Part shown: positions 15,001 through 18,000 of the stretch, in pieces
Layout of the letters: every line of letters begins with the position of its first letter
How positions within the stretch are numbered: the stretch's first letter is position 1
Virus record (IMG/VR): IMGVR_UViG_2563366971_000010
Location: 1 to 24,908 of that record
Length of the DNA stretch: 24,908 nucleotides
Direction: 5' to 3' (one strand)
DNA from: a virus
Lineage: Duplodnaviria > Heunggongvirae > Uroviricota > Caudoviricetes
Made by a program: the position numbers

Positions 15001-18000
15001 TCATGATGAATACCCAGGTATTCTGTCCTGGCTGTCCATGCCTCCACAAATAGGGGGGATTCGAAAAAAAAGCCCGCGTTGGGAAACGCGGGCGGCAAGG
15101 AATAAAACGTGAAGATTTTTTCACAGGCGCATAGTAACCTGATGTTATCAGGTTTTGCAAGTGTATCATCAGGTTATTATGTGAGTTGGAAATCAGATTT
15201 TGCATGGACATAAATTATGAAGTAATTTAGGGCCAAAGAACGGACTTTTTCTTCCGCCTTTCAGGTAACGATTAATGAGAAAAAGACTGAAATGCCCCCT
15301 CGGGGAGGAGGATAGTAGAAAAAAGAACCCGCCAGCAAAAATATTGGGGGGATGAACAGCTTTCGCTACTTTGGTTGCTGGCGGGTATAGCTCCTCATGA
15401 ATAAGAATGTCGCGGTATTTTTTAATGGAAATGAGAATCATTGTCAACTGATTGCGTGTGTTGTCTTCATACATGACTGGTAAAGGTGATTCAGGCCATC
15501 AGAGTTTTGCTGATGGCCTTTTTTCTTTCCGGTAGCACAGGTCTGTCGGGGCGGGATATGTATCAGATGGAAAAAATATCAACAGGCATTGCCTACGGCA
15601 CCTCCGCAGGCAGTGCTGGCTACTGGTTTTTACAGTGGCTTGATCAGGTCAGTCCTTCACAGTGGGCTGCGATTGGTGTACTGGGGAGTCTGGTTCTGGG
15701 CTTCCTGACTTATCTGACAAATCTGTACTTCAAAATCAGAGAAGACAAGCGTAAGGCTGCACGGGGAGAGTAATTCAATGACTCAAAACTATGAACTGAT
15801 TGTGAAAGGGATCCGCAATTTTGAGAATAAAGTTACGGTAACTTTAGCGTTACGGGACAAAAAACGCTTTGACGGTGAAATTTTTGACCTGGACATCTCG
15901 CTGGACCGTGTTGAAGGTGCCGCGCTGGAGTTTTATGAGGCAGCAGCCAGAAGGAGCATCAGACAGGTCTTCCTGGATGTTGCTGCCGGGTTATGTGAAG
16001 GGGATGAGCAGCCGCCGGAAAAGCGCCCCGTAATTTTAGATGCGCAGAATGTGTGGATAACCTACAAAGGAAAGCTACCAGGAAGAATTACTGGTTCTCT
16101 GAAGACTCCTCCGGAATCACAACCTTAAGTCACTGACCGGAACAGATAAACCTGTCCGTGGGCAGAAACCGATAAATCCTGATAAATATCCATGAGCGCA
16201 AAAATCAAATACGGCCTGTCAGCTGCGGTTCTGGCGCTGATTGCTGCAGGTGCGTCTGCTCCTCAAATACTTGACCAGTTTCTGGATGAAAAAGAGGGTA
16301 ACCACACTACGGCATACCGCGATGGTTCCGGCATATGGACCATCTGTCGTGGTGCCACAATGGTGGATGGTAAGCCCGTCATACCGGGAATGAAGCTGTC
16401 GAAGGAAAAATGCGACCAGGTTAACGCTATTGAACGTGATAAGGCGCTGGCATGGGTGGAGCGCAATATTAAAGTACCACTGACCGAACCACAAAAAGCG
16501 GGTATCGCGTCATTTTGTCCCTATAACATTGGCCCCGGTAAGTGTTTTCCGTCGACGTTTTATAAGCGGCTGAATGCCGGTGATCGTAAGGGCGCATGCG
16601 AGGCGATTCGCTGGTGGATAAAAGATGGTGGGCGCGATTGCCGCATACGTTCAAATAACTGCTATGGACAGGTTATTCGTCGTGACCAGGAAAGCGCATT
16701 AGCCTGTTGGGGGATAGATCAGTGAGCAGAGTCGCCGCGATTATTTATGCTCTGGTTATCTGCATCATCGTCTGCCTGTCGTGGGCGGTCAATCATTACC
16801 GTGATAACGCCATCGCCTACAAAGAACAGCGTGATAAAAAAGTCAGTGAGCTGAAGCTGGCGATCGCCACCATCGCTGACATGCAGCAGCGTCAGCGTGA
16901 TGTTGCTGCGCTCGATGCAAAGTACTCGAGAGAATTAGCCAATGTGCAAGCTGAAAATGAAACTCTGCGCGCTGATGTTGCCGCTGGCCGTAAGCGCCTG
17001 CGGATCAATGCCAGTTGCTCCGCAGCCGTGCGTGAAGCCACCGGACCCACCAGCGTGAATAATGCAACCATCCCCCGACTGGCAGACACCGCTGAACGGG
17101 ATTATTTCACCCTCAGAGACCGATTGATGACGATGCAGATGCAACTGGAAGGGGCGCAGGAATATATCCGCACTCAGTGCATTAAGTAGCCTTTTTATCG
17201 TGGTAAACATTTCGCAGGGTATGAGGTATTTATGCCATCACGAATCCCACGCGCCTGCCGTAAGCGTGGATGTGTAGGTACAACCACAGACAGTTCTGGT
17301 TACTGCGATAAACATCGTGGCGAAGGATGGGTACAGCATCAACGCGGACTGAGCCGCCACCAGCGTGGCTATGGCTCGAAATGGGATGCCATACGTGCGC
17401 GCATACTGAAGCGTGATAATCATCTGTGTCAGAACTGCCTGCGCAATGGGAGAGCCGTTGAAGCCAGAACTGTGGACCACATCATTCCGAAAGCTCATGG
17501 TGGCACGGATGCAGACAGTAACCTGCAGAGTCTGTGCTGGCCCTGTCATAAAGCAAAAACAGCGCGCGAACGCATCAATTGATAACAGTTCCCATCTGTA
17601 GGGGAGGGGCGGGTCAAATCTCTGCAACCCTGGCTGCTCAGTACCGCCGCCTGACCTTTCCTCGCATCGCCGCAGGTTCGAAAACTTTTTTTTGGAATGT
17701 GATTAAATGATTGATAGGTAAAACCGATTATGTCTGGACCCCCGAAAACCCCGCCACGCCTGCATTTGATACGAGGTAACCCCTCAAAGCGGCCAGTTAA
17801 AGACTCCAAAAAAACCGCTAAAAAGGATGAAAAAGGTCTCCCTAAAATTCCGCAACATTTAGGGGCGCAGGGGAAGTACTGGTTCAGGCGAATGGCGGAA
17901 GAGCTGAATGCGGAAGGGATCATTTCTCAGCTCGATGCACGTGCGCTCGAGTTACTGGTGGAAGCCTACACCGAATACCGGCATCACTGCGAAATACTCG

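Follow-up and report, generated by a model that had tools for sequence, protein, structure and literature searches.

Which gene fills the interval between the holin and the endolysin in this phage lysis cassette, and what might its product do there? The window analyzed here, the whole 24,908-nt stretch of a Caudoviricetes genome (IMG/VR record IMGVR_UViG_2563366971_000010), carries a 116-aa ORF at this position. The first-pass annotation had treated it as an unassigned gene with no recognizable domain, in an arrangement considered unusual because holin and endolysin genes are expected to be adjacent. Our sequence comparisons identify the ORF with high confidence as ydfR, which belongs to the DUF1327/YdfR family and has the anatomy of an optional module of S21-type lysis cassettes.

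As originally described, the ORF runs on the plus strand from an ATG at 15778 to a TAA at 16126-16128. Its product matched the Pfam profile PF07041 (DUF1327) with an E value of 2.2e-42 and a score of 143.6 bits, relative to a gathering cut-off of 25 bits, and the match covered profile positions 1-92 of 93. Five PHROG families were also matched, with PHROG 2091 and 406 reaching E values of about 1e-67; the claim that the protein lacks a domain was thus overturned, and so was its unassigned status, as RefSeq lists it as "YdfR family protein" (WP_000193274.1) in E. coli N24 (100% DNA identity). Escherichia phage PhiR49_2 encodes a 100% identical protein. Together with the profile match, the conserved N-terminal core and the position between holin and lysozyme identify the product as a YdfR protein. 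Family, name, and cassette position are already recorded in Pfam, RefSeq, and the K-12 annotation and are therefore known. The NCBIfam search of the window protein returned no match, and a sequence search of solved structures, conducted with the single sequence and with a 37-sequence profile, yielded nothing even at E values up to 10. Screening the window protein and three long variants against PADLOC-DB retrieved 0 families at E values up to 0.1. A phmmer match to the 3128-aa protein P0162 was rejected as spurious because P0162 is a G2F-repeat protein. Literature retrieved under the name "ydfR" mostly concerns an unrelated melanoma cell line, and "DUF1327" appears in one comparative-genomics paper.

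Table 1. Features of the lysis cassette and of the ydfR product, in window coordinates.
Feature	Coordinates	Strand	Description
Terminator-like hairpin with T-run	15493..15528	+	10-bp stem with 6 GC pairs, then TTTTTCTTTC; a short distance 5' of the holin start
S21-type class II holin (pinholin type)	15558..15773	+	71 aa; Pfam PF04971 Phage_holin_2_1, E 4e-35; PHROG holin families
Shine-Dalgarno GGGGAGAG	15763..15770	+	Within the 3' end of the holin gene; 7 nt 5' of the ydfR ATG
ydfR	15778..16128	+	DUF1327/YdfR-family protein, 116 aa, between holin and endolysin
Conserved N-terminal domain, aa 1-74	15778..15999	+	Predicted three-stranded sheet and long helix
Variable C-terminal tail, type A (EKRPVILDAQNVWITYKGKLPGRITGSLKTPPESQP)	16000..16125	+	Basic; low-confidence model
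ydfR-R spacer	16129..16191	+	63 nt; ends in conserved ATAAATATCC before the R ATG
SAR-type endolysin (lysozyme) R	16192..16725	+	177 aa; Pfam PF00959 Phage_lysozyme, E 1e-24
Rz i-spanin	16722..17189	+	155 aa; Pfam PF03245, E 2e-46; GTG 16722 overlaps the R stop
Embedded Rz1 o-spanin	16942..17058	+	Truncated by an in-frame TGA at a codon for Trp in relatives

The Pfam matches of both neighbors bore out the initial description of an ORF wedged between holin and endolysin genes (Table 1). The holin most likely starts at ATG 15558, and not at the GTG at 15486 chosen by the ORF lister; its N-terminus, MYQMEK..., contains an M1/M4 dual start, and a 71-aa product is also called at related loci. The hairpin preceding it probably serves as a late-operon terminator, one that polymerase modified by Q would read through. 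A 4-nt spacer, TTCA, separates the holin stop codon (TAA, 15771-15773) from the ydfR ATG, and the strong Shine-Dalgarno site reported in the first pass was recovered inside the holin gene. In a consensus scan, the stretch separating S from R (15774-16191) showed neither promoter-like nor terminator-like sites, which makes the proposed co-transcription of ydfR with the holin and endolysin genes plausible. Downstream, the 63-nt ydfR-R spacer contains no Shine-Dalgarno sequence ahead of R, and a comparison of the sequences upstream of R in five ydfR cassettes provided the basis for regarding ATAAATATCC as conserved. An RNA element in this spacer was considered and rejected, as its fold was no better than that of shuffled sequences (z +1.04); no Rfam family or tRNA was found anywhere in the window. 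R itself has a hydrophobic, SAR-like segment at its N-terminus together with an E-8-D-5-T motif. Rz likely starts at GTG 16722; related loci call a 155-aa product, and in N24 the RefSeq lysis-protein CDS at the corresponding position overlaps the lysozyme CDS by 4 nt. The in-frame TGA in Rz1 is present in the window, N24, and one further locus (L003), while 55 other matches have W at this position. An AB5 toxin is encoded just upstream of the cassette. For the window, the practical value of these assignments is annotation, which now reads pinholin, YdfR, SAR endolysin, and Rz with a truncated Rz1.

The presence of ydfR in the window is ordinary, because this well-catalogued gene fills the same slot in prophages of most E. 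coli genomes, including K-12. Of 5426 complete E. coli genomes, 2813 contain the S-ydfR-R block at ≥80% query coverage and 4349 (about 80%) contain ydfR-like DNA, which can occupy as many as 10 sites in one genome. A relative is encoded on at least 586 IMG/VR stretches. Among 438 phage records that have a holin of this type, about 101 carry the gene, including H-19B, BP-4795, and many Stx1a and Stx2c phages. The family comprises 65 representatives at 50% identity, and a scan of one genome per species placed it in Escherichia species and in two MAGs, which are probably contaminated. No copy was seen outside the S21-type holin cassette: an S21-type holin match ended directly 5' of all 100 related copies from fetched loci, and ydfR began right after the holin match in 80/80 IMG/VR loci and in K-12, as did the 104-, 176-, and 287-aa variants. 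The gap between holin stop and ydfR was 4 nt in every locus examined. The inspection of related cassettes thus revealed homology to a routinely present lysis-cassette accessory protein, and the notion of an unusual insertion, contradicted by these counts and by the K-12 Qin prophage, was abandoned. Since its family, name, and cassette position are on record, the gene carries little weight as a discovery.

Comparison with individual cassettes clarified what is fixed and what is variable. In the K-12 Qin prophage (YdfR b1555, P76160), the order essQ-ydfR-rrrQ-rzpQ parallels the holin-ydfR-lysozyme-Rz/Rz1 order of the window, with the same 4-nt gap between the holin stop and the ydfR ATG. However, the K-12 tail, SEKVESYLQHQYSFKIENPANKHERPHHKYL, is unrelated to the type-A tail of the window, and in K-12 a 4-nt overlap joins the stop of ydfR to the start of rrrQ, whereas the window has the 63-nt spacer. 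VT2-Sakai (933W type), with a holin 80% identical and a 177-aa SAR endolysin 93% identical to those of the window, lacks ydfR; the same GGGGAGAG Shine-Dalgarno and 4-nt spacing are retained, but the ATG belongs to R (GGGGAGAGTAA, then 4 nt, then the R ATG). Judged by position, the GGGGAGAG site serves ydfR in the window and R in cassettes without ydfR. The VT2-Sakai holin is 100% identical, and its R 95% identical, to those of a locus encoding the 287-aa form of YdfR (L099). In phi458 and Pectobacterium ZF40, which share the holin family, S is followed directly by R, again without ydfR. Cassettes of this ydfR-less kind are the ones that the first-pass annotation took as its model. Since otherwise near-identical cassettes such as that of VT2-Sakai do without it, ydfR is dispensable for lysis. 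In terms of gene content, ydfR falls outside the core lysis machinery; it is an optional module of the S21-type holin/SAR-endolysin/Rz-Rz1 cassette of Escherichia lambdoid (pro)phages. Co-variation of the YdfR tail type with the endolysin type, which would have hinted at a YdfR-R interaction, was considered and rejected: the R of the window is 89-96% identical to that of K-12 Qin, VT2-Sakai, and other cassettes, whatever the tail and with or without ydfR.

The protein is composed of a conserved N-terminal domain and an exchangeable tail. Residues 1-74 are 81% identical to the corresponding residues of K-12 YdfR and display the core pattern YEL..KG...K..V....R.EG..LEFYE..A. Among 13 diverse members including the window protein, the invariant columns were Y5, E6, L7, G47, Y53, E54, A57, and L72; in the 37-sequence alignment, they were L7, K10, G11, K18, V21, R44, G47, L50, E51, Y53, E54, A57, and A69. 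A dN/dS of 0.24-0.32 relative to diverged homologs indicates that the N-domain is under purifying selection. Because this ratio accompanies strong family homology, the ORF is more than a chance reading frame, and by these signs ydfR is a genuine, translated-looking late gene. AF2 predicted a beta-beta-beta-alpha fold for the N-domain (E5-14, E18-27, E34-43, H50-73; pLDDT about 65-83), while pLDDT fell below 50 at residues 73-115. At least four tail types were distinguished in the alignments, and the tail, which is swapped by recombination, is probably disordered. The pI was 5.5 for the whole protein, 5.1 for the N-domain, and 8.4 for the tail. With a maximum Kyte-Doolittle value of 0.69 over 19-residue windows and no computed TM segment or signal-like N-terminus, the sequence describes a soluble, mildly acidic cytoplasmic protein. 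Length variants of 103, 104, 116, 176, and 287 aa were encountered, forms of 176-296 aa exist, and a Pfam scan of the C-terminal extension of the long form gave nothing below an E value of about 0.1, far under gathering scores.

Our best guess at a mechanism, a late-expressed modulator of RNase E or of RNA, is possible but tentative, and it is chosen because the sole experimental lead is the RNase E and RNA binding of K-12 YdfR. In a 2026 report, residues 1-72 of K-12 YdfR bound the catalytic half of RNase E and co-purified with RNA (PMC13232886). A two-hybrid screen recovered T25-YdfR(1-72) three times, full-length YdfR was positive with Rne1-597, Rne1-598-FLAG co-eluted with Strep-YdfR, and DNase-resistant nucleic acid co-purified with YdfR (PMC13232886). 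Overexpression of K-12 YdfR was non-toxic, produced no growth phenotype, and changed few transcripts, and the authors could not exclude a contaminant as the RNA source (PMC13232886). The RNase E link comes from this one paper, with an overproduced tagged protein and no nuclease control for YdfR, and the contact may therefore be bridged by RNA (PMC13232886). In the proposed mechanism, the N-domain would bind RNA, the N-terminal half of host RNase E that holds the catalytic activity (and RNase G), or both. Standing second in the late operon, ydfR would be expressed as soon as Q acts. Its product would then influence how specific RNAs decay or are processed, with the phage late transcript as the most plausible target, and would not inhibit RNase E globally. 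A wider formulation, which we consider rather doubtful, envisages a widespread effector whose N-domain docks on the catalytic half of RNase E/G while the exchangeable basic tail directs or protects RNAs, such as the long late transcript. T7 gp0.7, T4 Srd, and phiKZ Dip are phage-encoded modulators of host RNase E, and YdfR would likewise be a small phage protein targeting a degradosome nuclease if the contact is real, a likeness that is a functional analogy only. The acidic character of the N-domain, unusual for an RNA binder, and the almost unchanged transcriptome on overexpression argue against this mechanism, and the transfer of the RNase E model is weakened in that the window protein shares only aa 1-74 with K-12 YdfR and differs in the tail. 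The strict linkage to the holin stop is equally well explained by a lysis-related role.

The main rival assigns YdfR to lysis timing, a doubtful reading in our assessment, with the gene acting either through its protein or through its placement. As a protein, YdfR could, for instance, interact from the cytoplasm with the charged C-terminal tail of the pinholin or regulate how the SAR endolysin is released; by placement, ydfR would capture the strong Shine-Dalgarno site, so that the R:S ratio falls and premature lysis by spontaneously released SAR endolysin is limited. The absolute linkage to the S21-type holin, the fixed junction, and the confinement of the family to this cassette are consistent with such a role, and the capture is visible in the sequence, since ydfR takes the holin-embedded site and R is left behind the conserved ATAAATATCC leader lacking one. 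P1 LydB, Mu gp25 "releasin", and T4 RI are soluble or membrane lysis regulators encoded beside holins or SAR endolysins, as ydfR is; the resemblance is a functional analogy only, as no search revealed homology to YdfR, and YdfR lacks the TM and periplasmic domains of membrane-acting regulators. Without a TM segment or signal peptide, YdfR cannot act like membrane or periplasmic antiholins or releasins, and the protein showed no SAR segment and no match to a holin or antiholin profile in Pfam or PHROG. In favor of a lysis role, a K-12 delta-ydfR strain scored as envelope-leaky in a genome-wide CPRG screen (PMC3879167); however, we infer that this Keio phenotype may be polar, with the kan cassette driving rrrQ. 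Against a lysis-timing role, cassettes with near-identical S and R lack ydfR in phages deposited as complete genomes, which makes the gene dispensable, and the overexpressed K-12 protein left growth unaffected (PMC13232886).

An unlikely reading is that deletions in a longer gene with two or three domains left the 116-aa form as a remnant, kept by linkage to essential lysis genes and with little or no function of its own. The 287-aa form does occupy the whole S-R interval, all shorter forms match its 5' part and resume about 6 nt before the R ATG, and tail types, internal duplications, and truncations are numerous, with one 44-aa copy being an obvious pseudogene (dN/dS about 1). Nevertheless, the selection on the N-domain speaks against a remnant, short forms are the commonest (the 116- and 103-aa clusters at 90% identity hold about 950-1300 members, whereas the 287-aa form is on 2 contigs), and conservation of the type-A tail extends to members whose N-domains retain only about 50-60% identity. 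We regard it as very improbable that ydfR is cargo parked in the lysis cassette, of benefit to the lysogen or directed against phages (moron, superinfection exclusion, or defense). Patchy presence is typical of accessory genes, and accessory cargo does occur around the lysis cassettes of lambdoid phages: VT2-Sakai has ant between R and Rz, KilA-N/ORF11CD3 genes follow Rz at related loci, and the AB5 toxin precedes the cassette in the window. Yet ydfR is a poor match for a moron in the strict sense, since neither a promoter nor a terminator belonging to it was detected in the consensus scan; its translation signals lie inside the holin gene, and PADLOC-DB gave no match for the window protein or the long variants. 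K-12 ydfR also yielded almost no RNA-seq reads under standard growth (PMC13232886), and it is therefore not expressed from the repressed prophage.

If the wider reading of YdfR as an effector acting on RNase E/G is true, most E. coli lambdoid prophages, including Stx1a and Stx2c phages, would couple the control of RNA decay with the start of lysis. Whether YdfR tunes lysis or host RNA decay would bear on when, and in what amount, toxin and phage are released.

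The 116-aa open reading frame lying between the holin (S) and endolysin (R) genes is, with high confidence, ydfR, an optional and non-essential accessory gene of the S21-type pinholin/SAR-endolysin cassette. The first-pass annotation was right about its coordinates and flanking genes, and about its strong Shine-Dalgarno (SD) site, GGGGAGAG at 15763-15770, which lies at the right distance, with the holin stop, TTCA and then the ATG. Its description of a product with no recognisable domain did not hold, as the protein matches Pfam PF07041 (DUF1327; 143.6 bits, E 2.2e-42, gathering score 25) and five PHROG families without known function (best E 2e-67). 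The NCBIfam and PADLOC models gave no match. On every feature that could be tested, the protein is a member of the DUF1327/YdfR family, and the finding is not new, the family having been catalogued already without a known function. The chromosome of E. coli N24, isolated from human CSF, matches the 1240-nt S-ORF-R block at 100% identity, and for this stretch RefSeq lists 'class II holin family protein', 'YdfR family protein', 'lysozyme' and 'lysis protein'. The same order, essQ-ydfR-rrrQ-rzpQ/rzoQ, is found in the cryptic prophage Qin of E. coli K-12 MG1655, whose YdfR is 81% identical to the window protein over residues 1-74, and Escherichia phage PhiR49_2 encodes an identical protein, likewise between 'holin protein S' and 'lysozyme R'.

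The gene had been regarded as unassigned and as wedged into a phage-21-type cassette, where holin and endolysin were expected to be adjacent. Adjacency is correct for some members (VT2-Sakai, phi458 and ZF40) but not for cassettes with ydfR in between, and in related lysis cassettes ydfR occupies this slot in 80/80 IMG/VR loci, K-12 Qin and PhiR49_2. In those 80 loci and in K-12 the ydfR ATG comes directly after the end of the holin match, with an offset that does not vary, and a lysozyme gene is next in every locus with sufficient flanking sequence; the 104-, 176- and 287-aa variants and phage HannyBb share the holin-ydfR placement. In VT2-Sakai, by contrast, ydfR is absent and 4 nt separate the S stop from the R ATG, with an identical GGGGAGAG upstream, while in phi458 and Pectobacterium phage ZF40 S is followed directly by the lysin. 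A locus with a 287-aa ydfR (L099) shares 100% identity with Sakai in the holin and 95% in R, and ydfR is therefore an optional module that fits precisely into the gap from S stop to R start. In doing so it captures the SD used by R in cassettes without it. The R start of the window has no SD (leader 16129..16194), and a conserved SD-less ATAAATATCC-like leader precedes R in all five ydfR cassettes compared. The ydfR stop of K-12 overlaps the rrrQ start, whereas a 63-nt spacer precedes R in the window.

Features of the late region and lysis cassette of the window
Feature	Coordinates	Strand	Details
Antiterminator Q	13132..13518		
AB5 toxin operon	13820..14239 and 14275..15006	+	between Q and lysis cassette
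Terminator-like hairpin	15093..15072	-	downstream of the 93-codon ORF
ORF, 93 codons	15193..15474	-	toxin-holin intergenic; probably not a gene
Terminator-like hairpin, strong	15493..15528 (stem 15493-15519)	+	10-bp stem then TTTTTCTTTC
S21-type class II holin (S)	ATG 15558 (almost certain start); stop TAA 15771-15773		upstream of ydfR; Pfam Phage_holin_2_1, E 4e-35
ydfR	ATG 15778 to TAA 16128	+	116 aa; DUF1327/YdfR family
Lysozyme (R)	ATG 16192	+	177 aa; SAR-like hydrophobic N-terminus, E-8-D-5-T motif
Rz	16722..17189	+	after R; Rz1 embedded
Rz1 o-spanin	16942..17058	+	inside Rz; in-frame TGA
HNH endonuclease	17232..17582	+	directly upstream of P27-family small terminase, then large terminase

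The lambdoid late region is complete in the window, with Q followed by the AB5 toxin pair, a terminator-like hairpin, the lysis cassette, the HNH endonuclease, terminase, portal and head genes. An ORF lister placed the holin start at GTG 15486, yielding a '95-aa' extended frame; the true start is almost certainly the downstream ATG, with a 71-aa product, because the extension holds the strong hairpin and the 71-aa product is called in related loci. This ATG would give the M1/M4 dual start typical of S21. Located about 30 nt upstream of the ATG, the hairpin would shield the lysis genes from toxin-operon transcription unless read through by Q-modified polymerase. The minus-strand ORF in the toxin-holin interval has no Pfam match and is unannotated in the identical RefSeq genome. 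The HNH and terminase order is the usual HNH-assisted cos-packaging arrangement, and just 41/81 related IMG/VR loci, about half, have the HNH gene.

A TGA interrupts the reading frame of the embedded Rz1 at a position that is Trp in 55 related matches, a change common to only N24 and one IMG/VR locus (L003) among the fetched loci. Only about 19 residues of the mature lipoprotein would remain, without its C-terminal part, and the spanin of this prophage may thus be defective. At this site the Rz-frame codon is AAT, for Asn; an ancestral TGG in Rz1 would imply that Rz earlier had Asp there. Upstream, the toxin A subunit is EcPltA/ArtA-like, its nearest relative being the pertussis-like toxin subunit ArtA chain (PDB 4z9c, E 1.6e-97). 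For the B subunit the best match is subtilase cytotoxin SubB (4bwg/3dwa, E about 3e-40), the B chain of 4z9c being far more distant (E 8e-17), a difference that points to a mixed A/B pairing. In RefSeq the two are annotated as 'scabin-related ADP-ribosyltransferase' and 'subtilase family AB5 toxin binding subunit'. Within the upstream flank (up to 3 kb, shorter in some), 0/80 IMG/VR ydfR loci contained the toxin A gene.

An S-ydfR-R query was covered to at least 80% in 2813 of the 5426 complete E. coli genomes, a cassette without ydfR reaching at most about 67%, and ydfR-like DNA was present in 4349 of these genomes at 8617 places (maximum 10 per genome). The phage collection contains 101 records with a relative and 438 with the holin type; those with a relative include H-19B, BP-4795, Stx2-converting phage 86 and many Stx1a and Stx2c phages. 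At least 586 IMG/VR stretches match. The family is nonetheless narrow, with no more than 65 representatives at 50% identity in a set of 1.84 billion proteins, and in a one-genome-per-species collection ydfR was confined to Escherichia coli, E. albertii, E. ruysiae and two MAGs; source names of relatives also include Shigella and a few Salmonella. The MAGs (L095, L097) are labelled Veillonella parvula and 'Bacillota bacterium' and have E. coli-like flanks, and one 90%-identity cluster (P0073) is labelled Enterococcus faecalis. These copies most likely represent contaminating or mis-binned E. coli contigs.

The window protein is soluble (maximum hydrophobicity window 0.69), shows no signal peptide and is mildly acidic (pI 5.5), with an acidic N-domain (pI 5.1) and a basic tail (pI 8.4). 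Its conserved core spans about 74 residues, with Y5, E6, L7, G47, Y53, E54, A57 and L72 invariant in a 13-sequence alignment. AlphaFold2, using a 37-sequence alignment, predicted antiparallel strands (5-14, 18-27, 34-43) and a long helix (50-73) at pLDDT about 65-83, and an unconfident tail (pLDDT <50); a sequence search of solved structures returned no relative. Alignments revealed a modular C-terminus past the core, comprising type A (the window protein, 113-116 aa), type B (104 aa, ending ...YTIKINSSDNSITGC), type C (K-12, 103 aa) and extended forms of 176-287 aa. Carrying a type A tail rather than that of K-12 is the sole unusual thing about the window copy. Long variants of 176, 183, 196, 206 and 287 aa were seen (L099 718..1581; L086 3001..3531; P0070, P0142, P0136), with no Pfam domain in their extra segments; the N-domain is internally duplicated in P0070, and in the 176-aa loci ydfR and R are 321 nt apart, separated by apparently non-coding DNA. 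DNA comparison indicated that all forms have the 5' part of the 287-aa gene in common and rejoin that gene about 6 nt before the R ATG. The proper SD and an identical allele in a phage deposited as a complete genome are signs of a real gene. Against diverged homologues, the dN/dS of the N-domain was 0.24-0.32, compared with about 1 for a truncated 44-aa copy.

With RNase G as bait, a two-hybrid library screen recovered ydfR codons 1-72 three times, RNase E 1-597 was two-hybrid positive with full-length YdfR, and Strep-YdfR co-eluted FLAG-tagged RNase E 1-598 from cell extracts (Goepel et al., RNA Biol 2026, PMC13232886). The same study found DNase-resistant nucleic acid co-purifying with YdfR, with no nuclease control for YdfR and a possible contaminant mentioned by its authors, as well as non-toxic overexpression altering few transcripts and almost no ydfR reads under standard growth (PMC13232886). 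The RNase-interacting residues 1-72 are the part of K-12 YdfR conserved in the window protein. The mechanism that we tentatively favour is that YdfR is a late-expressed modulator whose N-domain would touch the catalytic half of RNase E or of RNase G, RNA, or both; its effect would be on specific RNAs and not a global one. An earlier genome-wide screen classed the envelope of the K-12 ydfR deletion mutant as leaky (PMC3879167 supplements). We infer that a polar effect would explain this leakiness equally well. Such an effect is plausible because the kan cassette of that deletion collection can drive downstream genes, the next gene here being the SAR endolysin rrrQ.

The strict linkage of ydfR to the holin and the SD-less R leader of ydfR cassettes would fit a part in lysis timing, played by the protein or by mere capture of the SD of R lowering R translation. 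We rate this main rival as slightly less likely than the RNase or RNA reading; the absence of membrane-targeting features from YdfR and the dispensability of the gene speak against it. Purifying selection on the N-domain and the dominance of short forms make it improbable that ydfR is a decaying remnant of a longer gene. Moron or defence cargo is very unlikely for a gene with neither promoter nor terminator of its own, not expressed in lysogens and matching no PADLOC model, and by the features tested ydfR falls outside the antiholin, moron and defence classes.
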